The notes under the pieces are model-generated. The model was not told the origin of the DNA, did not search any database, and saw nothing but the letters and a program-made list of their open reading frames with translations. A stretch of 64,000 nt of DNA from positions 405,992-469,991 of the forward strand of contig JAGOQR010000001.1 of assembly GCA_017991415.1 (NCBI GenBank), written 5' to 3'. Each line of letters begins with the position of its first letter. Positions within the stretch are counted from its first letter, which is position 1. The translations under genes and the position numbers were made by a program. This DNA comes from Candidatus Magasanikiibacteriota bacterium. GTDB taxonomy: Bacteria > Patescibacteriota > Patescibacteriia > Magasanikbacterales > GWA2-37-8. Shown in pieces: positions 26,421 through 59,871 of this stretch.

Positions 26421-26527
<107 letters not shown>

Positions 26528-26624: not shown

Positions 26625-29880
<3,256 letters not shown>

Positions 29881-33721: not shown

Positions 33722-34333
33722 CTAACTTTGATTTTTATTTTTTACTTGCTGACTTACTGCACTTGGTTTTGGTGGATAGATTTTTTTAGCTGGGACAAAT
33801 CTTTTGTCTGCGATTAAAAATTTTGCCTTATCCTGACTTAAATCAATAAAATCATCGGCTTCTTCTATTAATTTACCAGAAGCAGTCCCACCAAACGACA
33901 TTACTTCTACCTGCTTTCCTTGACCTCTTAAATAGTCTACCAGTGGCACATAGTCACCATCTCCACTTACAAGAACCACTGCATCAAGGCTTGGAGAAAA
34001 TCTAATCGCATCTACTGCCAATCCAACGTCCCAATCGGCTTTTTTTTCACCGCCCAAAAAAATCTGAAGTGGTTTGTCTTTGGTTTCTATGCCTAAATTG
34101 TAGAGAGCATCAAAAAATGGCTGTTCTTCTTTGCTTTCGGTGCTTACGACATAAGCAATGGCACGAATAAGTTTGCGGCCAGCAGTAGCCTCTTTGACAA
34201 TATTACCAAAATTAACTTTAGCGCCAAATAAATTTTTAGCACTGTAGTACATATTTTGCACATCAATAAACACCCCTACTCTCTGGTCGGGGTGTTTAAG
34301 AGTGTTTCTTTTTTTGTTAGGAAGCGGATTCAT
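33722..34333 (-). CDS. NYN-domain (LabA/DUF88-like) putative RNase
   Basis: [10 protein letters not shown]-terminal Asp box and [13 protein letters not shown] motif; ATG at 34333 (the track start is TTG). Confidence 0.7.
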
Positions 34334-34682
34334 GGCTCTGTCCAATTATATCCACATCATCGCCTAGGTCTTCTTCTACCTCCACAGAAGCTCCGTCAGC
34401 TTTGGTAATGGCTCTAACTGGCTTTATTTTTAATTTTTTTATTAGCTCTTCGTAGCTTGCTGGATTTTCTTTCTTTAAATAACGCATCAAATTGCGACGG
34501 CTGCTTACCTTGCGGAGCAAACCACGGCGGGAAGAATGGTCTTTAGCATGAGTTTTTAAATGGCTTGCCAATTCTTCTATTTCGGCGGCCAAAATAGCAA
34601 TTTGAACCTCATTTGATCCAGTATCACCTTCGTGCAACTGAAACTTCTTGATTAACTGCTGTTTTTTCTTTTTATCTAACAT
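34317..34682 (-). CDS. rpsO: 30S ribosomal protein S15 with an acidic ~30-aa C-terminal extension
   Basis: S15 core ...[53 protein letters not shown]; 121 aa against the typical ~89. Confidence 0.85.
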
Positions 34683-34833: not shown

Positions 34834-35181
34834 TTATTTTGTAATCCTACTAAAAATAAAAGTGGCTATGCCATAAGCTGCAACCACCAAAATAAGGCCA
34901 ATTATAGCTGCAAACATTGCGTCCTTAGCTTTGGTAGCAAATTCCTCATTGCCACGAGCAGTCATCCAACGTAGACCTGCGTAAAACATAATGGCTAGAA
35001 ATATTATCCCTACAAAGGATAATATAATACTAATAAGACTGCCTATATAGGAGTAAATATCGGATTCACCATACTGAGCCTGACGGGCAGTTTCTTTTAG
35101 GCCAAATTGAGCTAAAACTGGAGCAGTCAGAATGAAACTAGATGCCACTAATGCTAGACAAAAAACAATCTTTTTTAACAT
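34834..35181 (-). CDS. VirB2/TrbC-like two-TM pilin-family small secreted membrane protein (outlier paralog)
   Basis: Signal peptide, then TM1-FYAGLRWMTARGNEE-loop-TM2 (IIGLILVVAAYGIATFIF): same architecture as the tandem array at 36.7-41.2 kb. Confidence 0.5.
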   Translation of the reverse strand: MLKKIVFCLALVASSFILTAPVLAQFGLKETARQAQYGESDIYSYIGSLISIILSFVGIIFLAIMFYAGLRWMTARGNEEFATKAKDAMFAAIIGLILVVAAYGIATFIFSRITK

Positions 35182-36677: not shown

Positions 36678-37133
36678 CTACTGAAGACAACGCTCGACAT
36701 CTAAAGGATTTTGAATACAATATTCGCCTTCTGAACTACTCGTATCCTGCAGCACCACTTTCGAAACAAAATACGTTATTGAATATGCAGACAAAATAAC
36801 TGCTAAGCCTATTGCGCCATCATACAGCAATTTTTTTGCTTTACTTATTTGTTCATCATTCCCCGCTGCAGTCATCCATAAAAAACCAGCATATACGGTG
36901 AGCACTAAAAATATTGTTCCGACCACTCCCAAAATAGTTCGGATTATTTTTGCTGCAATCGTCCGAGGATCAGTAGCATCTCCCAAATTTGCCCCGCTTG
37001 CGCCCGCAGCCGCCCCCAACTGGCCAAATGCATCTTGGCGAAGAGAAGAGGTCGCTGCCCCAACTGTATCTACAAAAACAGCAGAGAGAAAAGCTGCCGC
37101 TACGAAATATAAAACTAGAATAATCTTACTCAT
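36678..37133 (-). CDS. VirB2/TrbC-like pilin paralog 1 (151 aa)
   Basis: Signal peptide; TM1 ...VYAGFLWMTAAGNDEQISKAK...; TM2 IGLAVILSAYSITYFV; short Cys-containing C-terminus. Confidence 0.55.
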   Translation of the reverse strand: MSKIILVLYFVAAAFLSAVFVDTVGAATSSLRQDAFGQLGAAAGASGANLGDATDPRTIAAKIIRTILGVVGTIFLVLTVYAGFLWMTAAGNDEQISKAKKLLYDGAIGLAVILSAYSITYFVSKVVLQDTSSSEGEYCIQNPLDVERCLQ

Positions 37134-37135
37134 AT

Positions 37136-37504
37136 TTAGGTCGTGACTTTAAAGATACTATCTAAGACAAAATACGTAATACTATAAGAAGCCAAAATAA
37201 TAACCAACCCAATTACAGCGGTCTTTAAGATTCCAAGAGCCTTCTCTACTTGCTCACTATTCCCTGCGGCAGTCATCCATAAAAAACCAGCATATACAGT
37301 AAGGCATAGAAAAACTGTACCCAAAAGACCGAGCACTATTCTTATAATTTTCCCCACAGTTTCTGATAAGGTAGAACTATCAACTTGACCATACCCACTT
37401 TTAGCAGCTATATCTTGAGAGAGGTCCGTTTGAGCTAAAGCAACTTTTGCTGGAACGAACAACAGATTAAGTCCTAGCAAAAAAATTAAAAAGTGTTTTT
37501 TCAT
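37136..37504 (-). CDS. VirB2/TrbC-like pilin paralog 2
   Basis: ATG at 37504 (MKKHFLIF signal peptide); VYAGFLWMTAAGNSEQVEKA; IGLVIILASYSITYFV. Confidence 0.55.
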   Translation of the reverse strand: MKKHFLIFLLGLNLLFVPAKVALAQTDLSQDIAAKSGYGQVDSSTLSETVGKIIRIVLGLLGTVFLCLTVYAGFLWMTAAGNSEQVEKALGILKTAVIGLVIILASYSITYFVLDSIFKVTT

Positions 37505-37512
37505 AAAAATAA

Positions 37513-38031
37513 TTAAGGACAATTTGAGGAACAAGATCCTGCCTCCCATAATGTATCCCCTGATAAATTACAATCAGCCTGCACCGTATTTGCCGCACAA
37601 ACACTAAAATCTGATTTAAAACAACAGCCAACTTGGGTAGAATTTTGATTAGGAGATCCTGTAGCTGTAGTCAGCTTGCTAGTAACAAAGTATGTAATCG
37701 CATAAGCAGACATTACGATTACGAGCCCTATTACTGTTGACTTAATCATGTTTAAGGCTTTATCTACCTGTTCACTATTTCCTCCTGCTGTCATCCATAA
37801 AATACCTGCGTAAATTGTCAGAACTAAAAATACCGTACCAACCAACGCCAAAATTGTTTTTATAACTGTAGCGATACTACTTGAAAGATCAGAAGAAACA
37901 CCGATTCTTTCTCCATTTTCTCCACCTATACCTTTTAATATTTTCCCAGCATCTTTTAAACCTTGAGCTGAAGCGGTCACCGCAAACACCATGGAACAAA
38001 CGGTTAGGGCAACTAAAAATATTTTTTTCAT
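37513..38031 (-). CDS. VirB2/TrbC-like pilin paralog 3 with a Cys-rich C-terminal tail
   Basis: ATG at 38031; IYAGILWMTAGGNSEQVDKA; tail ...STQVGCCFKSDFSVCAANTVQADCNLSGDTLWEAGSCSSNCP. Confidence 0.55.
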   Translation of the reverse strand: MKKIFLVALTVCSMVFAVTASAQGLKDAGKILKGIGGENGERIGVSSDLSSSIATVIKTILALVGTVFLVLTIYAGILWMTAGGNSEQVDKALNMIKSTVIGLVIVMSAYAITYFVTSKLTTATGSPNQNSTQVGCCFKSDFSVCAANTVQADCNLSGDTLWEAGSCSSNCP

Positions 38032-38077
38032 ATACAAAGGAGTAAGAGAGAAATTAAACTTTTTAATTCAAATAATA

Positions 38078-38698
38078 TTACGGACATGATCCAGCCACCC
38101 AGGTTCTTGTGGGGCCAGAACAAGCCTCTTCAAAGGTTGCTACGCTATTTCCAGTTGCAGAATTAGAGCAGCAGCCAAGCCCAGTTGTCGGACACGATCC
38201 AACCACCCATGTTCTTGTCTGACCAGAACAGTTTGCTTGAAGCGTTTGCACGCGATTTCCCGTCTCATAATTAGAACAGCAACCCATGTTTTCTGAAGAA
38301 TTACTACTTTGCGAACTGCTGATACTTGCTAGTCTACTAAAAACAAAAGTTGATATTGCATAGGCTGCCAAAACTATCACCAGCCCAATAGCCGCATGCT
38401 CTACTATACTTTTGGCTGAATCTACTCGCTCACTATTACCGAACGCGATCATCCACAAAAGGCCTGCGTACAAGATTAATATGAAAAATATTACCCCTAC
38501 AAAAGACAATACTATTGCAATTACCTTACCTATTAGCTCTGGCAATGCTGTACTTGAATCTACCGTAGAAGCACTACCAATTAATTGAGTACCACCTGCA
38601 GCATCTTGTAGACCAAAATTATCTGCAAACACAAAAGCAGGTGTTATCACGGTTAGAATTGCTATAAGGGACAAAATTACTTTTTTAAAAACTGTCAT
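38078..38698 (-). CDS. VirB2/TrbC-like pilin paralog 4 with a tandemly duplicated Cys-rich C-terminal module
   Basis: LYAGLLWMIAFGNSERVDSAK; C-terminus has two ~33-aa repeats GCCSN..TGN.V.T....CSG.TRTWV.GSCP (DNA repeat ~38100-38300). Confidence 0.55.
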   Translation of the reverse strand: MTVFKKVILSLIAILTVITPAFVFADNFGLQDAAGGTQLIGSASTVDSSTALPELIGKVIAIVLSFVGVIFFILILYAGLLWMIAFGNSERVDSAKSIVEHAAIGLVIVLAAYAISTFVFSRLASISSSQSSNSSENMGCCSNYETGNRVQTLQANCSGQTRTWVVGSCPTTGLGCCSNSATGNSVATFEEACSGPTRTWVAGSCP

Positions 38699-38894
38699 AA
38701 TTTTATATGATGCAAATTAATTTTGCCGTTCTAAATTAAATATAAAATCTTTTTTCTATTTAGATTCTGTATTTAATTTAAAAAAACAAACTATACCCTT
38801 TAGGTTACAGAGCAGGCGCGCTTGACTCTCATGAGATAAAGTAGGCCAAGCGCGCCAGGTACGAATATAATTCGGACAATTCTCTGCAAAATAA

Positions 38895-39275
38895 TTACGG
38901 TCCGGTTGTAGCTGAAACTAGACTGTTGATAACGTAGGTAGCTAAAGCGTAAGCGGATAAAATAATAGCTAAACCAATAATACCAGAGAAAATCCATTGT
39001 TTTGCTTCTCCAGTTTGTTCGTCATTTCCTCCTGCTGTCATCCATTTAAAACCACCGATAAGGATAATTACTACGGCAACGATACCAAGTAATCCCATGG
39101 CTGTTCTAATAATTCTAGCTATAGTTGTGCGAACATCTTGTCTTCCGAGACCAGTAGCATCACCATATTGGATACCAAGATCTTGAGAAGTTACCTGTTG
39201 AGCACCTGCCATTGCAGGAACTAGCAACACAGAAAGAACTCCCACTGTTGCTAAGATTTTTTTCAATTTCATCAT
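38895..39275 (-). CDS. VirB2/TrbC-like pilin paralog 5
   Basis: MMKLKK signal peptide; ILIGGFKWMTAGGNDEQTGEAK; IGLAIILSAYALATYV. Confidence 0.55.
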   Translation of the reverse strand: MMKLKKILATVGVLSVLLVPAMAGAQQVTSQDLGIQYGDATGLGRQDVRTTIARIIRTAMGLLGIVAVVIILIGGFKWMTAGGNDEQTGEAKQWIFSGIIGLAIILSAYALATYVINSLVSATTGP

Positions 39276-39382
39276 ATTGTCACCCCCTTTCTATAAAGAA
39301 AATAGATCATAATACGCGTACATAACTTACTTAGTATATCACACTGTTGTGCCAAATCCCAACAATTTATTCCCAGTTGCCC

Positions 39383-39829
39383 TTAGGTTAAAAAACCTAA
39401 GAAAGTAGACAAAAGCACATAGCTGGCAAGCACTAAAACAACCCCGATTACTGCCCAAACCATTGTCTGAGTACCTGCTTCTACCTTTTCTGGATTCCCC
39501 GCTGAAGTTAGCCATTGGAAACCACCCCATACAAACATAACGAGGGTGAGCGCTCCAATTACCCCTAACGCAGCTCGAATTATTGTATTAATAAGATCAG
39601 AAACTTCGGTAGTTCCTGTCTGGCCTACTCCAATTGGATTTTCCAAATAACAAATTTCTTGACCCTGACTATTTGGCCTACAATTTGATCGGGACTCGTC
39701 TGAGGCAGATTGTCCAGTTACGCTATCTGTAAAAACATCAAATATGCCCGCATGAGCATATAGAGGTGTACTAAATAACCCCCACATAAACACCAAGCTT
39801 GTAATGCTAATTGTAAATACCTTTTTCAT
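39383..39829 (-). CDS. VirB2/TrbC-like pilin paralog 6
   Basis: FVWGGFQWLTSAGNPEKVEAG; VIGVVLVLASYVLLSTFL; Cys pairs in the N-terminal ectodomain. Confidence 0.5.
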   Translation of the reverse strand: MKKVFTISITSLVFMWGLFSTPLYAHAGIFDVFTDSVTGQSASDESRSNCRPNSQGQEICYLENPIGVGQTGTTEVSDLINTIIRAALGVIGALTLVMFVWGGFQWLTSAGNPEKVEAGTQTMVWAVIGVVLVLASYVLLSTFLGFLT

Positions 39830-39830
39830 C

Positions 39831-40790
39831 TTAAGTTGGGATAGAGTTAAATAAAAAGCTTACTAAGATATAGCTAAACAACATAACGGCTACACCCAAT
39901 GTGGTCCATACTAAAATCTTTTTAGCCTTATCTACTTGCTCGCTTGCACCACGTGCTGTCATCCACAACAAACCAGCAACGACATATAACACTAGAGTAA
40001 TCGAACCAATAAAAGCCATTAAACCGTTAATAGCTTTTTTAATAAACTGAGTAGGAGTATTAATTCCTGCTGGATTTAGATTTTCTGAAGCCATAAGTAG
40101 CAATTCGTTGGCAGAACGACCACGATTAATAGTTTCATCTTGCTCCGAAGAGGCGCATGGACCACGGAAAATGTCTACCTTGCTCGCTTCATTCAAATTT
40201 TTAGCACATAAATTTCTGGCCTGAGCAATCGCATCTGCTTCATTTCCACTCTGGAATTCTCGACAGTCCCCCGCATTATACTTATGTGACGGATCAGTTC
40301 CTGGATCACTAATCACCACACAACGATACGTGGAGCAAGCACCCGCGGCAGAACAATCCCCAGTATATGTAGGGCACAAGCTACGCAACAACTCCCCTTC
40401 ACAACCTGAATCATTGTAGTCATCAACAAAAATATTTTTGCACTGTGTGGCCTGCTTACATCCATATCTTTTTAAATTGGTGCAGGATTTATTAAACAAA
40501 TTGCCATCACACAAAAAAACAGCTTGAAAATATCCAGCGACACTCACATCTTTGCATTCATCATTTTTAACACAACCATATAATTCACAAGGGTCATGGC
40601 TAAAGTCTCCACTTCTTGCAGCACACTGTGCTTGCGCAGAGATTACATAATCTGTTTCGATATTTTCACAACCAGTGTCAAACGAGCAACCATACTTTGA
40701 TGCCACTACATTTTGGTTTGGAAACAAAAATAAACCAAAAACAAACATGATAATAATCGGTTTAATATTTTTCTTTTTTAGAAAAAACAT
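39831..40790 (-). CDS. VirB2/TrbC-like pilin paralog 7 fused to a ~230-aa Cys-rich N-terminal ectodomain (319 aa)
   Basis: Signal peptide, an ectodomain with >25 Cys (CxxC/CK/CD repeats), then VVAGLLWMTARGASEQVDKAKK and LGVAVMLFSYILVSFLF. Confidence 0.55.
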   Translation of the reverse strand: MFFLKKKNIKPIIIMFVFGLFLFPNQNVVASKYGCSFDTGCENIETDYVISAQAQCAARSGDFSHDPCELYGCVKNDECKDVSVAGYFQAVFLCDGNLFNKSCTNLKRYGCKQATQCKNIFVDDYNDSGCEGELLRSLCPTYTGDCSAAGACSTYRCVVISDPGTDPSHKYNAGDCREFQSGNEADAIAQARNLCAKNLNEASKVDIFRGPCASSEQDETINRGRSANELLLMASENLNPAGINTPTQFIKKAINGLMAFIGSITLVLYVVAGLLWMTARGASEQVDKAKKILVWTTLGVAVMLFSYILVSFLFNSIPT

Positions 40791-40795
40791 ACTAT

Positions 40796-41221
40796 TTAAT
40801 TTGCCTTAAGCTCATAAACACTCTTGAGCCCTACGGTAGTCCCTAAGAATCTCACTAACATATAGGCTCCAAAAACAACAATAAGACCAATAATGGCCGC
40901 CGAAATAATTTCTATACCTTTTTTTGTTTGTTCAGAATTACCACGAGATAAAATCATGGTAAACCCTCCATAAATAAAGAAAAGTAGCGCCAAAGCTCCA
41001 ACAATACCAAATAGATAATTAACAACATTAAAAAGTAAGATAATATAGATACTTACACTACGGCACTCTCCTTCGTCTGCAGGATCACCAGTAGGAGGGT
41101 TCAGAACACAATCAGGAATAAATTTACTGGTAGCAGTACTTTGAGCGAGCGCCTGCCCAACATTAACAAAGGCCGAAATGGATAGCAGAAAAATAAATAA
41201 TAATTTTGTTACTCTAGACAT
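40796..41221 (-). CDS. VirB2/TrbC-like pilin paralog 8
   Basis: ATG at 41221 (MSRVTKLLFIF); IYGGFTMILSRGNSEQTKKG; IIGLIVVFGAYMLVRFL. Confidence 0.5.
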   Translation of the reverse strand: MSRVTKLLFIFLLSISAFVNVGQALAQSTATSKFIPDCVLNPPTGDPADEGECRSVSIYIILLFNVVNYLFGIVGALALLFFIYGGFTMILSRGNSEQTKKGIEIISAAIIGLIVVFGAYMLVRFLGTTVGLKSVYELKAN

Positions 41222-43610: not shown

Positions 43611-45035
43611 CTATTTTACTACCTCCCAACTTAACAAGTTGTACTCTGACCCAACAGGAAAGCCAGGTGGCGGACCATAGGTAAGATTATTGTCATAAGT
43701 ATACGATTGGGTTGGATAACCTGATACCACTGTACTTCCTGACAACCACGAAACACCCCCGACTTTATATAAAATTCTTGAACCATACACATTGAGAGTT
43801 GTTTTTACAGGCCCACCAAATGACGAGTAATTATACCTTTTAAATGTTCCGTTCTGAGAAAGTAACGCCGCATCTATATTTAAAGTATTAGGACTACTAT
43901 ACGGAAGAAAAATATTTTGATCAGCAATAAGCCCTAAGGTATTAGTACCATCTTTAGCTAAATATGTTAAATCACCGTGAATCACCATGAATTTTCCAGC
44001 TCCTCCCCCTACTGTCACCCTACCTTTTAAAATACCATAAACCCACACATTATCTTCAACAAAAACATAGCTGCTGGTAGGAATGGGGTACGTTGTAACC
44101 GCACCGAAGGTTGCCGCATCAAGACAAGGTGCTGGACTAACCGTAAAAGCTACGCCAGTATCAGGGTTCACATCTCTTGCTGAGCGAGTAGTGCAAGTTA
44201 AAACTTTAGAAACTCTAACAGTCCCATCATTTACAAATTGCAGCCGCCACCCCAAATTACCTGACGATGATAAATAAGGCCAATTTCCACCCCCTTCAGC
44301 TAATGCTGAAGATCTTATCTCAGCCAATTTTGCAGTTACAGCGGTAAAATCTTTGGCGGGCACTGGATATTGCCAGTACCCAACAGGACCACCCCCACCC
44401 CAAACGCCCTGCTTATTAGGAATAGAGCTCCCACAATGAATAGTAGGGCATGTATAGGTGGCCATAGCACTCATAATAGGCGCATTCGCTGTACCTTCAA
44501 ATCTGATACCGCCATTTGCTTGAACTTTCCCAGTTGAAGGTCCTGTAAGATACAAGTTTGCGTTTTGCAAAACTGCAAAGTCTGCGAGTGACGGAAATCC
44601 TACTCGCGCTTTAATAACACGCGTACTATTTGGCTGATTATTAAGCGAGCCAGTTGACTCAATCGTAACAACCGTTGAGCCCGTAGAAGGTGGTGTTATA
44701 ACTAAAGAAAACTGCCCAATGACATTTCCATCTTTATTTTTATATTCATGTACATACGGCCCAGGCGTACTCGTACCATTGCCGTCGTAATAATCTGTTT
44801 TGTCGTGTGCTAAATGCCAACGATAATAATTTATACCAGCGTCTGCAATTTGCAAGGCCATTTCAGTATTGTGTTTTTTATTAGAAGCAGAATTTTCTGA
44901 GACTGCATAGCCTGTTAGGGCTGTAACAATTACAGTGAAACTAATCGTACCAAAAATCATAACAACCAAAAGAATATTCCCATGTCTATTTTGAAAAAAT
45001 AATTTAGTCAAACTTTTAATACGATCTAACAACAT
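43611..45035 (-). CDS. PilX-N-domain-like pilus-associated protein (474 aa)
   Basis: N-terminal TM ...GNILLVVMIFGTISFTVIVTAL... then TEMALQIADAGINYY (PilX_N-like); a G/T/S-rich beta-rich remainder. Confidence 0.45.
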   Translation of the reverse strand: MLLDRIKSLTKLFFQNRHGNILLVVMIFGTISFTVIVTALTGYAVSENSASNKKHNTEMALQIADAGINYYRWHLAHDKTDYYDGNGTSTPGPYVHEYKNKDGNVIGQFSLVITPPSTGSTVVTIESTGSLNNQPNSTRVIKARVGFPSLADFAVLQNANLYLTGPSTGKVQANGGIRFEGTANAPIMSAMATYTCPTIHCGSSIPNKQGVWGGGGPVGYWQYPVPAKDFTAVTAKLAEIRSSALAEGGGNWPYLSSSGNLGWRLQFVNDGTVRVSKVLTCTTRSARDVNPDTGVAFTVSPAPCLDAATFGAVTTYPIPTSSYVFVEDNVWVYGILKGRVTVGGGAGKFMVIHGDLTYLAKDGTNTLGLIADQNIFLPYSSPNTLNIDAALLSQNGTFKRYNYSSFGGPVKTTLNVYGSRILYKVGGVSWLSGSTVVSGYPTQSYTYDNNLTYGPPPGFPVGSEYNLLSWEVVK

Positions 45036-45083
45036 ACTTTTAAAGTGGGTTAAATGCTGGACACAGAACCATTTTTTAAAAAA

Positions 45084-45701
45084 TTAATTATCCTTAAGAT
45101 TTCGCAACATAACCTTTGATTCAATATAAAATGGTACTGGCGAAGCATTTGGATCCTCCTCTAAAACCAACGAAACACCAACTACTCTAATCTGGGTCAC
45201 AGTAACTGGACTAGAAAGCGGAGACTCAGCTCCCGTATAAGTACTATCGTAATAAAGAAACGGAGGGGTGGAAGTGATCAGGTCGTGAGCTACGTCAACC
45301 ACTACCTCGTTAGCTGAGCTATACACAAGTGGATTACCCGTTGGTTTTATTACTCCTTTTTTTAAAGTTCTGCCTGATAAAAAATACCGCACCCTCTCTA
45401 CTAAATTATCTGTATCAAGATTGCTATAAAAAACTATTGCCGTACTTGAAGCCGATTCAATTGGATAAGCACCAATACTAGAAATCGAAGCAATTCGGAG
45501 TTCGTTTACAAAATCTCTAGTGACCTTACGTCCTTCATTTTGAGTTTTTAATTGTTCCCAAACTATTTTATTATATTTCCAACTGGTCAAAAAAAGAGAG
45601 GTTATTCCTACTACCAAAAAAGAAAATATACCTATAGATACAAGAACTTCTACCAGAGTAATGCCGTGATTATTATTTTTTAAGTCTTTCAAAAAAAACA
45701 T
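45084..45701 (-). CDS. type IV pilin-like protein (prepilin-type N-terminal cleavage/methylation domain)
   Basis: NHGITLVEVLVSIGIFSFLVVG class III signal with E+5; ATG at 45701. Confidence 0.6.
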   Translation of the reverse strand: MFFLKDLKNNNHGITLVEVLVSIGIFSFLVVGITSLFLTSWKYNKIVWEQLKTQNEGRKVTRDFVNELRIASISSIGAYPIESASSTAIVFYSNLDTDNLVERVRYFLSGRTLKKGVIKPTGNPLVYSSANEVVVDVAHDLITSTPPFLYYDSTYTGAESPLSSPVTVTQIRVVGVSLVLEEDPNASPVPFYIESKVMLRNLKDN

Positions 45702-45709
45702 ATTCAAAT

Positions 45710-47500
45710 TTATGGAGACATTTCAACTACAACTTCTCCTCTACCAGCTACATCTACCACTTCACTACTAGCAGTATACCCGGAATGAGAAACATTTAAA
45801 GTATATGTTGTAGCCGACAAACCAGTAAATAATTCTTGCCCGGGCGGGATGCAACTCGTAATATACGTAAAGGCGATTTCAGAAAGAGTGGGTGTAAAAG
45901 AAGTGTCGTCGGTATTTAAATATGCTTTATATCTCAAATACCTTTTCCCATTATGCCCGCTCCAAATAAGGGTACTAGTGGAGGTGTAATAGGTGCTGGA
46001 AGCACCATCTGGCCCATAAAAGTCCCACTGGCTAGGGGTGCTAGAATTGCTTGAAGCTAACTGAAACATGATAGGATTGACACCAGCCTCTGGCGGCTGC
46101 GAAAGAGGAGAGAAAATAATATTATTAAAGTTTGCTTCTACCCCCAAATCTATGGTCGAAGACTCTAGCCAACCACTATTTAAATACGTACTACCAATTT
46201 TTCTTAACTTAAAATCTCCGTCTGGTGAATTATTTTCAACATTACCATTATCATTAAAATATTTTGTAGTATTAGAATACTCAACTTGACCGCCGCCACC
46301 ACTCCAATCTGTCTGGCGCACAAAACCATAACCGGTTATCCTAGTTTCATCATAACCGCTGGCTGTAAGACTCACTGTAGCGTCAGAAAGAGGTAGTCCA
46401 GTGCCAGCATCTTTAACTTTAACTAACAACGAATGAGCTGAATAAGGAGCTAATATAACAGAAACGTCTTGCGTTAAACCGGGTGTTAAATCTATCGGCA
46501 ACATCGGCGTTGAACCACCAACAAGATAAGTGGTACCGGAAACAGAAATATGATACTTATCCCATTCAAAATTCGCAAAAGTATAATTGCCACTACTGTT
46601 AGCGTTTAAATTTCTATTATACTTATAGACATCTGGGCTTATGCCGATCTTTTTTTCACCGTAAATATTAAAGGGCGTATTCGCGACAGCAGAGCAAGCA
46701 GGGGTAAGAAAATGCAGATCCATATTACTTAACCGATCAATAGAAAAACTAATATCGGTTACAGTTTGGCTGGTTACATTAGCGGGCGGTTTTACTGGGG
46801 TAGATACCTCAGCCCCTACAGGCACTGTGTAATCTGCAGAGTATCCAGCCTTACTCACATTAATACTATAACTAAGAGTACCCGTAGGGGTATCTATAAT
46901 CCGTAAATAACCGTCATTATCCGTGACATCATTTATGACCAAAGCTGGTGTTTGTGCAGTACTGGTAATTGAAATATTTGCGCCTGAAACTGGCAGGCCA
47001 TTGGAATCAAAAACTTGAATAAAAAGCGCCCCGTTTTGAGTAGCACCTTCTAGCTGTTTTGGAGACACAATAGTACTTAGGGTTATTGGTTTTTGTTGAG
47101 AACACTGGTTACAAATAACAGACATCTCTACTAATTTAAAATCGGCAGGAGAAGTATCGTTGGGAGTACCGCCGAGAGTGCCGTCAAAAGGATCGTCTAT
47201 ATTTCTTATCGTAGTAATAATAATAAAAGTTTGGCCATTGCGCACTGTCGTGGTGGAATAAGGTAAAATTCCACTCGGAATACCATTCACAATCCCAACA
47301 CTATCATAAGGCAAATTACGTACTACCTCCAAACGCTCAGCTAAAAGAGCTGTTTGCAAAATAGACATACGTGATTGATATACCACCTTGAAAATTAAGT
47401 TAATACCACTATAAACCCCCAAGGCAAATAATAAAAAAATGGCGCTGGCTATCAAAATTTCCAGGAGTGAAAAACCTTTTTGGTTTAATTTGGATTTCAT
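45710..47500 (-). CDS. large type IV pilin-like protein (596 aa) with Ig/CarboxypepD_reg-like beta domains
   Basis: QKGFSLLEILIASAIFLLFALGVY prepilin motif; repeated beta-sandwich-like segments. Confidence 0.6.
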   Translation of the reverse strand: MKSKLNQKGFSLLEILIASAIFLLFALGVYSGINLIFKVVYQSRMSILQTALLAERLEVVRNLPYDSVGIVNGIPSGILPYSTTTVRNGQTFIIITTIRNIDDPFDGTLGGTPNDTSPADFKLVEMSVICNQCSQQKPITLSTIVSPKQLEGATQNGALFIQVFDSNGLPVSGANISITSTAQTPALVINDVTDNDGYLRIIDTPTGTLSYSINVSKAGYSADYTVPVGAEVSTPVKPPANVTSQTVTDISFSIDRLSNMDLHFLTPACSAVANTPFNIYGEKKIGISPDVYKYNRNLNANSSGNYTFANFEWDKYHISVSGTTYLVGGSTPMLPIDLTPGLTQDVSVILAPYSAHSLLVKVKDAGTGLPLSDATVSLTASGYDETRITGYGFVRQTDWSGGGGQVEYSNTTKYFNDNGNVENNSPDGDFKLRKIGSTYLNSGWLESSTIDLGVEANFNNIIFSPLSQPPEAGVNPIMFQLASSNSSTPSQWDFYGPDGASSTYYTSTSTLIWSGHNGKRYLRYKAYLNTDDTSFTPTLSEIAFTYITSCIPPGQELFTGLSATTYTLNVSHSGYTASSEVVDVAGRGEVVVEMSP

Positions 47501-48475: not shown

Positions 48476-51400
48476 TTAAGAACAACCGGTAGTACTACCA
48501 CAGTTCAAACATTTATAGCAGGCACCGTTGCGAATAGTGATATGACCACAAGTGCCGCATGGCGGTGCATCTCCCATCATTCCAGATAATTGCTTTCCTA
48601 TAGCATCAACACTCGCATCTTGGCTAACTTCTTCTTTTGGCATACTTGGCAATGTTGCTTGAGCAACAAAACTGTTCTCTACTTTTTTTTCTACAAGAGG
48701 CATAGCATGTTGCCCGCTTAATTTTTCTGCAATCTGCTCCATCTGTTGAGCTTTATTTTTTTGGATTCCCGTTGGTTTGACTTGAACAAAATCGGTACGA
48801 CCTAAGTATTCCATACCAAGCACTCGGAAAACAAAGTCAATAATTGAAGTGCAGAACTTTATATTTGGATGATCGGTAATACCACTTGGTTCAAAGCGGG
48901 TAAAGGTAAACTTGTCTACATATTCTTCGAGTGGCACACCGTACTGCAAACCAGTTGAGATAGAAATAGCAAATAAATTGAGCATACTGCGGAAGGCTGC
49001 TCCTTCTTTGTGCATATCAATGAATATTTCACCCAATCTTCCATCTGGATATTCGCCCGTGCGTAAGAATAATGACTGTCCAGCAATTTTGGTTTTAATG
49101 GTTATACCTGTTCGTTTATACGGCATTTTTCTTTGTTCACCATGCACATAAATACGATTGCCTTGAATACTGCCATCGTGGTTATACTTAATAAGCGCTT
49201 GTGCATCTGCCACCATCTGGTTGATGACTGACTCATTCTGGCTTGAGAGGCTATATGTTTTGCGCACTTCTTCTTTGACAGAAATTTTTACTTCTTCTAC
49301 AGATTCGGCAGAGATTTTTGTATCTTCTACGACCACTGTTTTGCTTTCGGTTGTTTCTTCAGTTTTTTTCTTATCAGATTTTGCAGACAATGGTTGAGAC
49401 ATTTTGGAACCATCGCGATAGAGAGCCATGGCCTTTAGGCCCAATTTCCAAGAAGCAACATAAGCTGTCTTTACATCATCAAGAGTTGCTTCGTGCGGCA
49501 TGTTTATAGTCTTGGAAATAGCGCCAGACAAGAATGGCTGTACTGCGGCCATCATACGAATGTGGCCCAAGAAATGAATATAACGCTGGCCTTTTTTACC
49601 ATTTTTATTGGCTGTATCAAAGACAGCATAATGCTCTTTACGTAAATGTGGAGCACCTTCTATAGTCATCGCACCACAAACAAATTCGTTGGCTGTAGCA
49701 ACCTGTTCGGCTGTAAATCCAAGAGCAGACAACACATTAAAGTTTGGATCATTGTATTGTTCGCTAGAAAAGCCTAAACGTTTTAAGCAATCTTCTCCCA
49801 AAGTCCAAACATTAAAAGCGAAAGCTAGTTCAAATACTCCAAGTAAAGATTTTTCTATTTTTTCCAACTCGATTGCAGTGAGCCCCTTTTCTTTTAAGGT
49901 TACATGATTAATATGTGGAGCATTTTTGAGTGTAGCATGACCACGTAAATAATTAATAATGTCATTTACCTGATTCTCCGAATAGCCCAAAACATGCAAG
50001 GCAACAGGGACAGATTCATTAACTATTTTAAAGTATCCACCACCAGCTAATTTTTTAAATTTTACCAAGGCAAAATCTGGCTCAACACCAGTGGTAGCAC
50101 AGTCCATCAATAAACCGATAGTTCCTGTAGGCGCTAACAATGTTGTTTGCGCATTTCTATATCCATACTTTTCACCCATTTCTATAGCTTTGTTCCAACT
50201 CTCACGAGCGGCAACAAGCAAATAAGCAGGTACGTGCTCTGGATTAATTCCCATAGGTTTGATTGCCAAACTTTCATATTCTTCATGAGGAGCATCAAAC
50301 GCAGCTCGTCTATGGTTGCGCATAACACGCAACATATCTTCTCGGTTTATATCAAACCCTGTAAAAGTTCCCAAAAATTTGGCCATTTCTGCAGAGGTAG
50401 CATACGATTCGGCAGTCAAAATCGCAGTAATGGAAGCAGCAAAAGCCATTGCCTCTGGTGAATCGTAAGGGATACCAGCTGTCATAAGGACACTACCAAT
50501 ATTGGCATAACCCAAACCTAGAGTACGGAAGTAATAGCTATTTTGCGCAATTTCTTTGCTTGGAAATTGAGCCATCAAAATACTAATTTCTAAAACTACA
50601 GTCCAAATTCTTGTCGTATAGGCAAAGGCATCGATATCAAAACTAAAGGTATCAGTATTGTAATAATGAGCAAGATTAATAGAAGCTAAATTACAAGCAG
50701 TGTCGTCTAAGAACATGTACTCACTGCAAGGATTAGAAGCATTGATACGTCCAGATTTTGGACTAGTGTGCCAATCGTTAATAGTAGTATCAAATTGAAG
50801 ACCCGGATCTGCACAAGCCCAAGCAGCACTAGCAATTTTGTCCCACAGCTGACGAGCTGGCACAGTCTTGATTATTTTTTTATTAATACGACCAAGTAAA
50901 TTCCAATCAGCTTCATTTTCTAAAGCTTCCAAAAATTCCTGGGTAACACGTACGGAGTTGTTGGAATTTTGTCCAGAGACTGTCTGATAAGCTTCTCCCT
51001 CGTATGCAGCGTCGTATCCGCCTGCAATAAGAGCTGCTACTTTTCTTTCTTCTTTTACTTTCCAATCTATAAATTCTTCTATATCTGGATGATCAATGTT
51101 GAGCACTACCATTTTGGCTGCTCTACGAGTGGTACCACCAGATTTGATTGCACCGGCAGCTCTGTCACCAATTTTTAGAAAACTCATTAAGCCAGAAGAA
51201 CTACCGCCACCAGAAAGTTTTTCTCCACTTCCACGTAAATTAGAAAAGTTAGTGCCAGTTCCACTGCCATATTTAAATAATCTAGCCTCACGAATCCACA
51301 AATCCATAATACCGCCTTCATTTACCAAGTCATCTTTTACAGCTTGAATAAAACAAGCATGTGGCTGAGGATGGGTATAAGAATCAGTAGAGGCCGTAAG

Positions 51401-51967
51401 TACACCACTATCTGGATCAACATAATAATGACCTTGGGCTGGACCATTGATACCATAAGCCCAATACAAACCGGTATTAAACCATTGTGGAGAGTTTGGA
51501 GCCACACGCTGAGAAATAAGCATGAAAACGAGTTCGTCATAAAACACGGCTGCGTCTTGTGGTGTAGCAAAATAGCCATATTTTTCCCCCCAATAACGCC
51601 AAGTGCCCGCCAAACGATGAGCTACCTGCTTCATGCTGTGCTCTGGACCAAGCACAGGCTTTCCTGCGGCGTCCATCATTGCCTTACCTTGAGCATCGTA
51701 TTGTGGCACACCAGCTTTACGGAAATATTTCTGAGCCAAAATATCGGTAGCTACCTGAGTCCAAGTATTTGGCACCTCTACTTCATTCATTTCAAACACC
51801 ATCTTGCCATTTGGTTCTCGGATAACAGAAGAGCGTAGTTCGTAGGTGAACATGTCATATGGACTAACGCCATCTTTGGTAAAAAGACGAGGAAAACGCA
51901 GACCTTCTGGAGAATATTTAAAATCATTATCCAAGACAAATGTTTTAGTCGCCAAGGCGTTTTGCAT
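48476..51967 (-). CDS. nrdJ: adenosylcobalamin-dependent (class II) ribonucleotide reductase, long form with C-terminal Zn ribbon
   Basis: Active-site motif NPCSEYMFLDDTACNLASINL, a glycine-rich loop SGGGSSSGLMSF, 1163 aa, C-terminal CGTCGH...CYKCLNCG. Confidence 0.85.
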   Translation of the reverse strand: MQNALATKTFVLDNDFKYSPEGLRFPRLFTKDGVSPYDMFTYELRSSVIREPNGKMVFEMNEVEVPNTWTQVATDILAQKYFRKAGVPQYDAQGKAMMDAAGKPVLGPEHSMKQVAHRLAGTWRYWGEKYGYFATPQDAAVFYDELVFMLISQRVAPNSPQWFNTGLYWAYGINGPAQGHYYVDPDSGVLTASTDSYTHPQPHACFIQAVKDDLVNEGGIMDLWIREARLFKYGSGTGTNFSNLRGSGEKLSGGGSSSGLMSFLKIGDRAAGAIKSGGTTRRAAKMVVLNIDHPDIEEFIDWKVKEERKVAALIAGGYDAAYEGEAYQTVSGQNSNNSVRVTQEFLEALENEADWNLLGRINKKIIKTVPARQLWDKIASAAWACADPGLQFDTTINDWHTSPKSGRINASNPCSEYMFLDDTACNLASINLAHYYNTDTFSFDIDAFAYTTRIWTVVLEISILMAQFPSKEIAQNSYYFRTLGLGYANIGSVLMTAGIPYDSPEAMAFAASITAILTAESYATSAEMAKFLGTFTGFDINREDMLRVMRNHRRAAFDAPHEEYESLAIKPMGINPEHVPAYLLVAARESWNKAIEMGEKYGYRNAQTTLLAPTGTIGLLMDCATTGVEPDFALVKFKKLAGGGYFKIVNESVPVALHVLGYSENQVNDIINYLRGHATLKNAPHINHVTLKEKGLTAIELEKIEKSLLGVFELAFAFNVWTLGEDCLKRLGFSSEQYNDPNFNVLSALGFTAEQVATANEFVCGAMTIEGAPHLRKEHYAVFDTANKNGKKGQRYIHFLGHIRMMAAVQPFLSGAISKTINMPHEATLDDVKTAYVASWKLGLKAMALYRDGSKMSQPLSAKSDKKKTEETTESKTVVVEDTKISAESVEEVKISVKEEVRKTYSLSSQNESVINQMVADAQALIKYNHDGSIQGNRIYVHGEQRKMPYKRTGITIKTKIAGQSLFLRTGEYPDGRLGEIFIDMHKEGAAFRSMLNLFAISISTGLQYGVPLEEYVDKFTFTRFEPSGITDHPNIKFCTSIIDFVFRVLGMEYLGRTDFVQVKPTGIQKNKAQQMEQIAEKLSGQHAMPLVEKKVENSFVAQATLPSMPKEEVSQDASVDAIGKQLSGMMGDAPPCGTCGHITIRNGACYKCLNCGSTTGCS

Positions 51968-55324: not shown

Positions 55325-57067
55325 TTATTTTAATCCTTTTTCTATTTGACCCACTTCTTTATTAATGAACTTTTCAGCCGCATTGAGCTGGTTTTTGAGC
55401 TGAGACAAAATTTTAGCCTCTTCTTTTGTTAGCTCTCTTTTTAACCGTACCCTTTCTAGGGTTGAAACTTGTTTACGAGTACTTTCTCGTAACTCATCAA
55501 AGGCCGTATGCACATTTTTTTCTACGACCTCCACCTCTGTCCTGACTTTATTTTTTAACATTCTAAACTTGTGCCAAATATAAAGAACTAGTACTAGTAA
55601 CAAAATAACCAAGCCTAACAAAGCAATAACGAGGGTCGCGTACCCTATTACCAAAGAACCTATTCTAAACAGTGCTCTTTGTGTGCTCGTAATAATAATT
55701 TTTTCACTCGGATTACTCTTTGCTCCTTTTTCATTTTGCGCTCGAGCCCAAACGGAATATTCTCCTTCTGCCAATCGTTTTTCAAAGATAAATTTAAAAT
55801 TTCCATTTTCGTCCGACTTCACAGACTGAGATACGGCTTCAGCGCCATCTTTTTGAAGATAAAAAGTAATAGTAACATCAGGGTAACTGTTACCTAATAC
55901 AACTAAATTCTGACCAACAAACAGCTCTTGGGGATACTCTACAAGATTAGGAGAATCTATTGGATTTACGGTAAGCTCAAGTGAAGAAGTAAGATAGTTA
56001 CCAGCTTTATCGATAGCTTTGGCAACAACCGTATGCATACCTGGATCCAAAGGTTCTGTTCTAAAAATATGACCCCCTTCATCAAACCAAATCGTAGGCA
56101 ACCCATTGTCTATTACAATTTCGTATTTACCTATTTCCGAACCGCCATCCCGAGCTTTCATATACAGCTGCGCAACAGGGTCAAGAGAGTTTATTGGCTC
56201 TGACAAAGACATGTCAAAAAAATCTGGCTTTTGCGTATCTATCTGAAATTGATAGTGCGTAACTGGACCCCAACCAGAAGAGTTTCTTACACGAATATGA
56301 AAATACCAGCTTCCCTCTTCTACATCTGAATACGTGTACGAACTCATAACCCCGTCAGATTTAGTTCCAGGGTTAGTGTTGGGGTTATGGTCTCCCAAAA
56401 TACTTACCCCCGTAGTGCCTGGTGGTAAAATCCAGGAAAATTTTGGGTCATTACCTGCACACCAGCCGTCTGGTGGCGGACAATTTATTGAGCTAACTTT
56501 AGGAGCATTTGGAATAGTGTTTACTTCTGGCGGTGATACCACATCGTCATTTATAGATCCTGGATCTGTAAGAACAAAATTAGCCGATCCTAACCCTTTT
56601 AAAATATTAGTGCCATTTCCATCGTTGGCCAAAACCGAACCAGAAGACAATCTAATTGTTGCTTGACCTGCCGCTTTAGCCTTTAGCGTGACAGTGATTA
56701 TTTTTCCTGCCGAACCAGTGTACCCAGGATTTAAGACAACACCTTCAAAGTTAACACTGCCCGCACTAAAAGAAGGCTCCTGCGCCCATAAAGAAAAAAT
56801 TGACCCAGATTTTGAAACAGACACCACCTCCAATTTATCAGTAGGAATATCAAGCTCTCCCGATGCAGCGTTCATAGACTGGTCTGAAGCAGAAACAAAA
56901 ATTGATATAGAAAAATTTTTACCAACCTGCTTGGTGCCAGAATCTGGCGAAAAATAAAGAGTAGCTGCTCGCGTATGTGATCCAATAAAAAAAAGTACAA
57001 AAAAAGACAAAAAATATATTGTCTTTTTTACAAATCCTAAAATTATTTTTTTATTTTTCTCTTCCAT
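55325..57067 (-). CDS. cohesin-like-domain surface protein with a C-terminal TM anchor and coiled-coil tail
   Basis: ATG at 57067 preceded by GGAGG; signal peptide; ...SGELDIPTDKLEVVSV...GKIITVTLKAKAAGQATIRL beta-sandwich (cohesin-like, inference); TM IGYATLVIALLGLVILLLVLVLYIW. Confidence 0.45.
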   Translation of the reverse strand: MEEKNKKIILGFVKKTIYFLSFFVLFFIGSHTRAATLYFSPDSGTKQVGKNFSISIFVSASDQSMNAASGELDIPTDKLEVVSVSKSGSIFSLWAQEPSFSAGSVNFEGVVLNPGYTGSAGKIITVTLKAKAAGQATIRLSSGSVLANDGNGTNILKGLGSANFVLTDPGSINDDVVSPPEVNTIPNAPKVSSINCPPPDGWCAGNDPKFSWILPPGTTGVSILGDHNPNTNPGTKSDGVMSSYTYSDVEEGSWYFHIRVRNSSGWGPVTHYQFQIDTQKPDFFDMSLSEPINSLDPVAQLYMKARDGGSEIGKYEIVIDNGLPTIWFDEGGHIFRTEPLDPGMHTVVAKAIDKAGNYLTSSLELTVNPIDSPNLVEYPQELFVGQNLVVLGNSYPDVTITFYLQKDGAEAVSQSVKSDENGNFKFIFEKRLAEGEYSVWARAQNEKGAKSNPSEKIIITSTQRALFRIGSLVIGYATLVIALLGLVILLLVLVLYIWHKFRMLKNKVRTEVEVVEKNVHTAFDELRESTRKQVSTLERVRLKRELTKEEAKILSQLKNQLNAAEKFINKEVGQIEKGLK

Positions 57068-57954
57068 AGGAAGCCTCCTAAACACAGAAGTAATAATACG
57101 ATTATTATACACCAAAACCAAATATTTTGATACAGTTTTTGCTGAGAAAGAGGTGACACAATAGAAATAATTTCATTACCAGCTTTATCTATAGCTTTAA
57201 TATATACAAAACTGCGTCGATCTTGATCCAAAAGAACTTCTGGATTTTGTGCAGCACGCCACTGTAGTTTTGTATAATCAGATATTTGCTGCCCCGCTTG
57301 TTCGGCTATTTCATAGTGGCTTATGCCTGATTTTTTATCCTGGGTATAAAAAACAGCTACCCATTTATTTTTATCTAGACTTTCATTTTTTATAACCTCA
57401 ACAAATAATGGCTCTGGTTTTTCTGTATCGAACAGAGCAGGCAAAGGAGGTATCGAAACGCCACGCAAAACTACAATAGTAGCGGGTGTAAAAGTTGTCT
57501 CAGCTTTAGTGCCCTGACCATCACTTATTAGAGCCGCCAAACTATCACTCACCCTAATAACTCCCTCCCCTTCTTTTGTTGCAGAAAACACCAAAGAAAA
57601 AATCTTTCCTTGCTCACCTTGACTATTATAGCCACCAGGGGTAATGCCAGCAAAATCTACTACCCCGGCAGTATTTCCTTGTGCTGGATTTTTAACCCAC
57701 AAGGCCACAACCGAATCTGCACTCCTAATTTCTTTTAAAGAAAAAATAGTGCTATCAAATACAACCGAGCCCTCGATAGCATTTATATTTTCCATTTTTG
57801 TATCGAGGAGAAAATCTACTTGAAATTCTTGACCTGGACCAACCTTGGCTGGAGAATCAAAAGAAAAATTAGCTGCAAAAACAGGATTGGCTAAAAATCC
57901 AAAACTAATTACTGTAGAGACAAAAAATATACTTATTACTGTTATTATTTTCAT
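57043..57954 (-). CDS. cohesin-like-domain surface protein with a C-terminal TM
   Basis: Signal peptide; QEFQVDFLLDTKMENINAIEGSVVFD...GKIFSLVFSATKEGEGVIRV; C-terminal TM WFWCIIIVLLLLCLGGFLW. Confidence 0.45.
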   Translation of the reverse strand: MKIITVISIFFVSTVISFGFLANPVFAANFSFDSPAKVGPGQEFQVDFLLDTKMENINAIEGSVVFDSTIFSLKEIRSADSVVALWVKNPAQGNTAGVVDFAGITPGGYNSQGEQGKIFSLVFSATKEGEGVIRVSDSLAALISDGQGTKAETTFTPATIVVLRGVSIPPLPALFDTEKPEPLFVEVIKNESLDKNKWVAVFYTQDKKSGISHYEIAEQAGQQISDYTKLQWRAAQNPEVLLDQDRRSFVYIKAIDKAGNEIISIVSPLSQQKLYQNIWFWCIIIVLLLLCLGGFLWKRKIKK

Positions 57955-57986
57955 AACTAATTATCTATAGTACACACTTTTTCCAA

Positions 57987-59297: not shown

Positions 59298-59329
59298 AAT
59301 TTTTCCTACAGCTTACCGACCGAAACTAA

Positions 59330-59731
59330 CTACTGCTCTGTTGGAGTTGGGGTAGGTGCTGGAGTTGGACTACCGATTACCAAAGGAGCTATTTCAATAA
59401 TTTTATTCTCAGTTGGGCGATACATAATAGCTTTTAGGGCTGTGGTGTAGATTAACACTTTATCCCCAGTGGCAGCTTTGGCAAAAAATGTTTGTTCTGC
59501 TTTGAGCTTGTCTGGATCGGTAACCGTGGCGATAGTCGGCGCCTCTCCTTCAGGAAGGAGAACTAATTTTCCAACTGCATCAATTATTTTTTGATTTTCT
59601 TCTTGCGCGACTTCTTGCGGACTAACTTTTAACTTTCGATTTTGACTATAAAACATAAAGCTGGTACCGGCGAGTATAAGAACCAAAACTCCTAATACCA
59701 CAGAAACTAGTTTTAAATTATTTGTTGGCAT
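59330..59731 (-). CDS. hypothetical membrane-anchored protein with a Pro/Thr-rich tail
   Basis: N-terminal TM, C-terminal PTPAPTPTPT. Confidence 0.4.
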   Translation of the reverse strand: MPTNNLKLVSVVLGVLVLILAGTSFMFYSQNRKLKVSPQEVAQEENQKIIDAVGKLVLLPEGEAPTIATVTDPDKLKAEQTFFAKAATGDKVLIYTTALKAIMYRPTENKIIEIAPLVIGSPTPAPTPTPTEQ

Positions 59732-59871
59732 ATATTAATAAATATAATAAATGTAATGTTACTTATTAGATGAAAGCAATTACTTTCTTTTTGCGACCTT
59801 TAATTTAAAAAGATAAAACTTTTGCTAAATTATACCACATTCTTTATTTAAGAGTAAATAAGATTGCCAAT

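Follow-up and report, generated by a model that had tools for sequence, protein, structure and literature searches.

Cysteine-rich modules grafted onto tandem VirB2-like pilin paralogs of a Candidatus Magasanikiibacteriota bacterium

The stretch of DNA analyzed here, referred to as the window, comprises 64,000 nucleotides from a Candidatus Magasanikiibacteriota bacterium (GenBank assembly GCA_017991415.1, contig JAGOQR010000001.1, positions 405,992 to 469,991 of the forward strand). Between positions 34834 and 41242, it carries on the minus strand nine co-directional small pilin paralogs in tandem, which run from P8 to P1 and are followed by P0; the remainder of the window is largely housekeeping DNA. 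Six of the nine paralogs are decorated with extracytoplasmic Cys pairs, and three of these (P3, P4, and P7) carry whole Cys-rich modules, in which the Cys content is approximately 9–12%, as compared with 0.9% in the long open reading frames (ORFs) of the window. An initial annotation, made from the letters of the sequence, had described Cys-rich modules on P3, P4, and P7, and its coordinates omitted other decorated members of the same array; P1, P6, and P8 have one conserved Cys pair each. Its observation is real and more general than it had recognized, with errors in detail.

A Pfam scan showed that all nine paralogs match PF18895 (T4SS_pilin), a VirB2/TrbC-like family of type IV secretion system (T4SS) pilins typical of the Candidate Phyla Radiation (CPR), or Patescibacteria. 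Eight of them scored 29.6–52.9 bits, with a cut-off of 26.6 bits. The score of P7 was 21.6 bits and thus under the cut-off, but P7 was assigned to the family because its core is 75–95% identical to orthologs with a precomputed PF18895 annotation. The paralogs are therefore pilins, as the initial annotation had called them, and judged by their sequences they are of the T4SS VirB2/TrbC type, unlike type IV pilins. Named database matches point to Candidatus Magasanikbacteria. The pilin sequences themselves show a hydrophobic N-terminal leader as well as the loop motif WMTA.GN.EQVDKAK, and the AlphaFold2 models contain helical hairpins (residues 48–84 and 89–132 of P4, and 246–278 and 282–315 of P7). 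The raw ORFs of P3, P2, and P8 started too far upstream, and comparison with the orthologs places the likely starts at the ATG codons at 38031, 37504, and 41221, respectively.

The three paralogs with whole modules are composed as follows:

38078..38698, minus strand: P4, 206 amino acids, with signal peptide, helical hairpin (residues 48–132), Ser-rich linker, and a pair of 4-Cys modules at the C-terminus
38189..38287, minus strand: P4 module A1, residues 138–170, framework CC-x15-C-x11-C, three short strands predicted
38081..38179, minus strand: P4 module A2, residues 174–206, tandem copy of A1
37513..38031, minus strand: P3, pilin bearing one 6-Cys B module at its C-terminus
37516-37632, minus strand: P3 B module, framework CC-x7-C-x8-C-x12-C-x3-C
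39831..40790, minus strand: P7, 319 amino acids, consisting of a signal peptide (residues 1–30), an 18-Cys ectodomain (31–215), a linker (216–246), and a helical-hairpin core (247–319)
40365..40697, minus strand: P7 repeats R1–R3, residues 32–69, 70–107, and 108–142, with 4 Cys each
40146..40364, minus strand: P7 membrane-proximal part, residues 143–215, 6 Cys, with the pattern Y-x-C-V-V-I...GDC-R-E-F-x-S...A-R-N-L-C...G-P-C

The C-terminal modules of P4, MGCCSNYETGNRVQTLQANCSGQTRTWVVGSCP and LGCCSNSATGNSVATFEEACSGPTRTWVAGSCP, are both 33 residues long, 67% identical to each other, and separated by the spacer TTG. Tandem Repeats Finder detected a tandem duplication at 38081-38281, with a period of 108 bp, 1.9 copies, and 77% matches, and it is this duplication that accounts for the presence of two modules on P4. 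The two repeats of about 33 residues and the DNA duplication of about 100 bp reported in the initial annotation were hence recovered. The same applies to the relatedness of the P3 tail: VGCCFKSDFSVCAANTVQADCNLSGDTLWEAGSCSSNCP aligned column for column with the P4 modules, over the full length of the latter. The B module of P3 differs from the A module by one additional Cys after the second strand and by a C-terminal xxxC; in the module alignment, these two B-specific cysteines always occurred together, as they were present in all six B-type copies and in none of the 19 A-type copies. The A/B Cys framework is conserved across the 25 module copies, and module A1 was matched by the module profile hidden Markov model (HMM) with an E-value of 1e-18. 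In the AlphaFold2 model of P4, built on an alignment of 45 sequences, the tail modules were predicted as three short strands each, with a predicted local distance difference test score (pLDDT) of 84–91, on a long helical hairpin.

In P7, the Cys-rich region, of roughly 215 residues, follows the signal peptide and precedes the pilin core. An N-terminal ectodomain of this kind had been noticed in the initial annotation, which overstated its cysteines: there are 18 of them rather than more than 25, spaced as C-x5-C, C-x4-C, and longer gaps, and the CxxC spacing ascribed to the region is absent. Alignment of the repeats from nine homologs showed that R1–R3 are units of about 38 residues with the form Y-G/S/A-C-x5-C-x-N/D-I/V ... 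C ... C. They were predicted by AlphaFold2, using an alignment of nine sequences, as a β-hairpin, a helix, and a short strand, with a pLDDT of 80–86 for R1 and R2. All 18 cysteines are kept in each of the seven full-length homologs, down to approximately 50% identity in the ectodomain, and a truncated eighth homolog retains every Cys within the span that it covers. When 1.84 billion representative sequences were searched in full by HMMER with the ectodomain profile, eight matches were obtained, all of which were pilin fusions. The distant relatives found in this search (P0109–P0115) share only the membrane-proximal module, which is duplicated in P0112. With their conserved cysteines and units predicted to fold, the modules do not have the character of low-complexity sequence that lacks a fold or a conserved spacing, which the initial annotation had named as the outcome that would refute it.

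We searched for known families and folds among the modules. When the isolated modules were compared with Pfam at E ≤ 10, only a sub-threshold match to CVNH and other weak noise were obtained, and sequence-profile searches of the PDB with the modules gave no meaningful match. Kinship of P7 with the CVNH lectins was rejected, as the score of 14.2 bits fell short of the cut-off of 24.5 and CVNH did not reappear in the profile search of the PDB. Foldseek searches with both models against the PDB, and with P7 against BFVD, returned nothing at E ≤ 0.001; they were run on whole-protein models and are insensitive for 33-residue units, which rarely reach significance. A local match of 31 residues to ADAM17 (E 1.3, root-mean-square deviation 2.1) was not significant. 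A profile of the A/B tails run against 5.8 billion proteins found only two further short pilin fragments and no occurrence outside pilins. We do not claim that the P7 repeats, the membrane-proximal module of P7, and the A/B modules of P4 and P3 are homologous, since hhalign probabilities were 0.12–0.25; the predicted topologies of the P7 repeats and the A/B modules are similar (β-β-α-β as compared with β-β-β), and their Cys patterns can be aligned by eye.

The resemblance to knottins, lectins, or defensins proposed in the initial annotation therefore found no significant support in Pfam, the PDB profiles, or the whole-model Foldseek searches. The modules are like knottins, defensins, hevein- and CBM1-type modules, and CVNH lectins in having 30–40 residues with 4–6 Cys, in being β-rich and arranged in tandem, and in having one conserved aromatic residue, which is Trp in the A/B modules. 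Their frameworks, CC-x15-C-x11-C and C-x5-C-x12-14-C-x8-11-C, nevertheless differ from those of knottins, defensins, hevein, CBM1, and CVNH, to which the sequence searches and the whole-model Foldseek searches gave no match. The modules appear to represent new small disulfide-rich domain families, of which there would be at least three in the window.

The state of the cysteines was addressed by a survey of the window and 85 related loci (86 loci), which contained 621 pilin-core ORFs, 3–12 per locus. The Cys count was even in 90 of 91 unique C-terminal tails and in 97 of 108 unique N-terminal regions, the boundaries of the latter resting on a crude placement of the signal peptide. Among control non-pilin ORFs, the count was even in 182 of 455 (40%). 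Cysteine made up 9.4% of the residues in the tails and 7.1% in the N-terminal regions, as compared with 0.70% in the control ORFs of the related loci. Most of the longer decorations were Cys-rich, namely 93 of the 114 tails with at least 25 residues and 61 of the 64 N-terminal regions with at least 60. The cysteines were confined to the regions before helix 1 or after helix 2, and a single Cys was found in just 23 of the 621 cores. At least one extracytoplasmic Cys pair was present in 198 of the 621 pilins. These fractions describe the clade rather than the CPR as a whole, as the sample was centred on relatives of P4.

A density of 9–12% could also be expected of cysteines that bind metals, in zinc ribbons, Fe-S clusters, or metallothionein-like sites, and do not form disulfides. 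There is no CxxC in P3, P4, or P7, and the pilin decorations of the survey contain only 15 CxxC among 1534 Cys, with His constituting 0.5% of the residues. The cysteines have an extracytoplasmic position, after the signal peptide or the second helix, their number is as a rule even, and they were gained pairwise in the B modules. Metal binding is accordingly the least likely of the alternatives that we considered, and we regard it as very improbable. Because of the even counts, the paired gain of Cys, the rarity of CxxC, and the low His content, the comparisons strongly favor intramolecular disulfides over metal sites, and we infer that the disulfides are actually formed.

The other six paralogs carry a single Cys pair or no decoration:

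40796..41221, minus strand: P8, VirB2-like, one N-terminal Cys pair (Pfam 43.2 bits)
39383..39829, minus strand: P6, VirB2-like, N-terminal Cys pair C50/C60 in the motif NCRPNSQGQEIC (Pfam 52.9 bits)
38895..39275, minus strand: P5, VirB2-like, undecorated and Cys-free (Pfam 46.7 bits)
37136..37504, minus strand: P2, VirB2-like, undecorated, with orthologs of 121–123 amino acids (Pfam 39.3 bits)
36678..37133, minus strand: P1, with a short C-terminal Cys loop (Pfam 33.8 bits)
34834..35181, minus strand: P0, undecorated ninth paralog (Pfam 34.3 bits)

The Cys pair of P8 is C45/C60 (residues numbered from the raw ORF, which extends to 41242), lies in the motif FIPDCVL...DEGECRS, and is kept in three related lineages, L004, L005, and L002. 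The loop of P1 is formed by C139/C149 in the motif YCIQNPLDVERC (36687-36719) and is conserved in all orthologs. P5 has one of the best PF18895 scores (that of P6 is higher), and none of the nine has a better TrbC score. P0 is set apart from the rest of the array by an opposite-strand gene for an MGDG-synthase-like glycosyltransferase and by two tRNA genes, and it has the same position in L001, L002, and L005. In L004, the P0 ortholog was called at only 51 amino acids (12589-12744), corresponding to the C-terminal half, and this short call may reflect a pseudogene or a problem of assembly or annotation. A scan for promoters and terminators showed that promoter-like sites in the array are no commoner than expected; one promoter candidate upstream of P5 (39362-39333) was not significant.

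The array is syntenic in four further lineages, L001, L002, L004, and L005, with the conserved order solute-binding protein, P8, P7, P6, P5, P4, P3, P2, P1, glycosyltransferase, P0, S15, NYN, and PNPase. The closest relative is L004, which is about 90% identical. P5 is Cys-free in all lineages, and its protein is 100% identical to that of L004 and 83–95% identical to those of the others. The synonymous divergence (dS) of its gene is 0.165, the minimum of the array, as compared with 0.4–1.2 for the other paralogs, suggesting constraint on codon usage or mRNA, as expected of a very highly expressed major subunit.

The decorations were traced through the same lineages. The B module is retained on P3 in L004, L001, and L002, and the single Cys loops of P1 and P8 are retained across lineages. 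The tail of P4 consists of two A modules in the window, L004, and L005, of an A module followed by a B module in L002, and of an unrelated 4-Cys tail in L001. The pilin in the P6 slot has gained a 6-Cys N-terminal extension in L002, where the N-terminal decoration of this slot has 8 Cys, and pilins of this slot carry an N-terminal A module in L010 (ORF +1559, E 5e-11) and L008 (ORF +6762, E 1e-9), and an N-terminal P7-type repeat in L014 (ORF +7345). In P7, the core is 75–95% identical across lineages, while the identity of the ectodomain, with 12 or 18 Cys, falls to 14–25%. The HMM of the A/B module matched 20 pilins in 14 loci and that of the P7 repeat matched 17 pilins in 16 loci; neither had any match among 3558 neighboring non-pilin ORFs. 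The A module thus occurs singly, doubly, together with a B module, or on the opposite terminus of another paralog, which is what is expected of modular pilins. The idea that discrete modules have been grafted on a pilin scaffold, put forward in the initial annotation, is borne out by the A module being C-terminal on P4 and N-terminal on P6-type pilins. As read from the sequences, the modules move between paralogs and between both termini, which would be expected if both termini face the same outer side.

Many other, mutually unrelated types of Cys-rich tails with 4–22 Cys were seen on pilins of the relatives (e.g. L014, L018, L021, L016, L027, L019, and L025), and the ending 'GLCPGG.DN..CC' recurred among them. 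The protein matches P0050 and P0054 have the spacing C-x6-C-x5-C-x10-13-C-x7-CC, which as a spacing in sequence resembles the framework of β-defensins.

When the window was compared with L004, the ratio of nonsynonymous to synonymous substitution (dN/dS) of the modules was as low as that of the pilin cores, indicating purifying selection. The values were 0.17 for A1, 0.06 for A2, 0.08 for the P3 tail, and 0.03 for the P7 ectodomain; the ratio was 0.01–0.18 in every coding part save the 13-codon linker of P4, for which it was 0.52. Diversifying selection between the window and L004 was considered and rejected, as none was seen. The strong purifying selection between close relatives, together with the conservation of the tiny single loops on P1, P6, and P8 in all lineages, would suit a structural role, in which the modules stiffen, bundle, or protect from proteases the filament or the membrane pool of subunits, or form cross-links among subunits or between subunits and the cell wall. 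The replacement of whole modules by unrelated ones at the same slot, with the core kept, is not what would be expected of pure architecture, and the even Cys counts favor intramolecular over intersubunit bonds. We find a structural role improbable.

The neighborhood of the array has some other features. Type IV pilus-type (pseudopilin-like) genes lie near the VirB2-like array at 43611-47500 on the minus strand, with N-terminal methylation motifs at 45084-45707 and 45710-47500, as well as a protein of 474 amino acids with an N-terminal helix. They are separated from the VirB2-like array by GalU-like and solute-binding-protein genes alone, and this neighborhood is kept in L002, L004, and L005, so that two kinds of pilin genes are conserved side by side. 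At 55325-63987 on the minus strand, several large proteins, predicted to be at the surface and containing bacterial Ig-like and dockerin-type domains, are encoded one after another, including an ORF of 1371 amino acids that continues up to the window's end. The region 48476-51967 on the minus strand encodes a class II ribonucleotide reductase (1163 amino acids); its barrel domain was matched by Pfam in two stretches, which may reflect an insertion such as an intein. The 23S rRNA gene (26636-29861, minus strand) contains a group I intron at 27564-27773, and the 5S rRNA gene lies at 26421-26527 on the minus strand. There is no adjoining 16S gene, and the rRNA genes are thus apparently unlinked.

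That extracytoplasmic, disulfide-bonded, and exchangeable modules sit on VirB2-like cores is well supported by the comparisons. As to what the array does, we propose, with a probability of roughly 0.5, that it displays disulfide-stabilized binding modules on minor pilin subunits for contact with a host or partner. In each pilin, a two-helix membrane hairpin comes after a Sec signal peptide, and the short basic loop of the hairpin (..WMTA.GN.EQVDKAK..) would be directed towards the cytoplasm or towards the lumen of the assembled filament, and both termini would therefore point outward. Prior to assembly, the termini of VirB2-type pilins are exposed on the outer side of the membrane. Costa et al. 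2016 and later T-pilus structures reportedly place both pilin termini on the outer surface of F and T pili, and the proposed outward display of the modules follows from this position of the VirB2-type termini in solved pili. The C-terminal 'GCC...C...W..G.C' modules of P4 and P3 would contain two or three disulfides each. The N-terminus of P7 would consist of three 4-Cys β-β-α-β repeats and the 6-Cys membrane-proximal part, and P1, P6, and P8 would have one disulfide loop each.

According to this proposal, the undecorated and most conserved P5 would be the main building block, and the decorated paralogs would be minor subunits that show their modules on the surface of the cell or filament. The modules would act as oxidation-stabilized, protease-resistant binding heads for a host or partner cell, and lineage-specific swapping of modules would retune the binding target over evolutionary time. 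Incorporation into a filament, the division into major and minor subunits, and the binding function are what we infer from this arrangement; location at the tip of a pilus and ligand binding, both put forward in the initial annotation, can at most be surmised.

Several observations weigh against the proposed display of binding modules on a filament. Neither VirB4 nor VirB6, VirB8, or VirD4 was found in the 64-kb window by a Pfam scan of its long ORFs (other than those at 59330-59731, 59872-63987, and 34317-34682), so that the window offers no linkage to a T4SS, and no gene for a DsbA/DsbB- or VKOR-like oxidoreductase, the first two of which the initial annotation had in mind, or for a thioredoxin was found in the window. 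The model of the whole P7 protein is only moderate (mean pLDDT 66.6, predicted template modeling score 0.35). Close relatives show purifying selection, and the notion of retuning relies on replacement of modules at larger distances. A 215-residue ectodomain on every subunit would be sterically difficult in a VirB2-type helical filament, which would leave for P7 no more than the place of a sparse or terminal subunit, analogous to VirB5 in role and not in ancestry. RP4 TrbC and Ti VirB2 lose a C-terminal propeptide and are cyclized, and C-terminal tails might thus not persist on the mature pilin. Filament formation has been demonstrated in no Patescibacterial system, the pilus being treated as a possibility only (PMC12857230).

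The absence of T4SS core genes from the window, the poor fit of the bulky P7 ectodomain in a VirB2-type filament, and the merely possible status of the Patescibacterial pilus would also agree with the hairpin being a mere membrane anchor. The Cys-rich modules would then be membrane-tethered ectodomains, such as receptors or contacts to the cell wall or S-layer, and no filament would be formed. The cores are, however, strongly conserved hairpins of the VirB2/TrbC family, and the undecorated, highly conserved P5 suits a polymerizing major subunit. Pilin genes of similar arrays were found near virB4 in 1135 of 1948 surveyed assemblies (PMC12102498), and in Southlakia epibionticum, epibiotic growth requires the pilin array (Wang et al. 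2023, PMC10633639; PMC12857230). On balance, we consider a mere anchoring function unlikely, though more deserving of attention than the other alternatives.

The processing of VirB2-family pilins raises a further alternative, namely that maturation removes the Cys-rich tails from the C-terminus as propeptides and releases them as free peptides (toxin, signal, or bacteriocin-like). C-terminal processing of propilins of this family is established for RP4 TrbC, and the tails are joined to the cores via Ser/Thr/Gly-rich linkers. There is some likeness to secreted toxins and defensins in their CC-C-C frameworks and, among some relatives, in a C-C-C-C-CC spacing. On the other hand, the A module and P7-type repeats are also found between the signal peptide and the core, from where release would need a second, unrelated cleavage. 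There is no conserved cleavage motif at the linker, the identity of which is 0–62% between orthologs, and the window yielded neither a TraF-like peptidase nor a cyclase. We therefore give the release of free peptides little credence.

The modular display on VirB2-like pilins can be compared with known systems. Arrays of 2–11 VirB2-like genes have been described in Patescibacteria, where adaptation to different hosts was proposed for them (Quinonero-Coronel et al. 2025, PMC12102498). Like these, the present array is a chromosomal set of tandem divergent PF18895 paralogs, nine in number, in a CPR genome; unlike the virB4-linked published arrays, it has no virB4 within the 64 kb. The published paralogs are small and sequence-divergent, with no mention of added domains or cysteine (PMC12102498, PMC10633639), whereas six of nine are Cys-decorated here. 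We found no description of Cys-rich or modular pilins in the literature that we consulted on Patescibacterial pili. Thus, VirB2-like arrays are already known, and their modular disulfide-rich decoration is apparently undescribed.

As outlined in PMC12102498, pilin genes have also been amplified and diversified in the trwL genes of Bartonella Trw and in virB2 of Anaplasma and Ehrlichia, where this is read as variation of a host-contact surface. The variation reported there is point divergence of short pilins, whereas here discrete disulfide-rich domains have been added or exchanged at either terminus. In Streptococcus sanguinis, modular type IV pilins are known, of which PilB bears a vWA module and PilC a lectin module (PMC8179133, PMC9934059). 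The concept of a binding module grafted on a pilin, so that a minor subunit makes the filament an adhesin, is shared with them. The S. sanguinis scaffold is unrelated, with a methylated N-terminal helix and a type IV pilus machine in place of the VirB2 helical hairpin, and its modules belong to known families, whereas the modules of the window match nothing.

The pilins of F and T pili, TraA, VirB2, and TrbC, have in common with those of the window the two-helix hairpin, the basic loop, and outside termini that tolerate additions. Classical conjugative pilins are undecorated and have approximately 70–80 residues when mature. VirB2 and TrbC are moreover trimmed and cyclized head to tail, which would be incompatible with a retained terminal domain.

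A broader and more tentative interpretation, which we think has the odds somewhat against it, is that a CPR clade turned the bare VirB2 pilin into a modular display scaffold, whose mini-domains, shuffled between paralogs and between the two outward termini, would be the host-recognition determinants of the essential Patescibacterial T4SS or pilus and would set the host range of these epibionts. The modules might then fill the role that VirB5 and adhesins have elsewhere, and many more module families might exist in the relatives; we regard this part as equally tentative.

How the ultrasmall CPR bacteria recognize their hosts and attach to them is a question on which the decorated pilins bear. 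Few gene sets have been demonstrated to be essential for epibiotic life, the T4SS pilin array being one of them, and its subunits have hitherto been treated as featureless. The results show that about a third of the pilins in the surveyed arrays carry conserved, exchangeable modules, which provides candidates for host-binding heads that can be expressed. The even Cys counts at the termini constitute a simple sequence signature for finding more decorated pilins, and several apparently new small disulfide-rich domain families are added to the catalogue. The findings also suggest that these oxygen-sensitive, respiration-less bacteria need some extracellular route for the oxidation of thiols.

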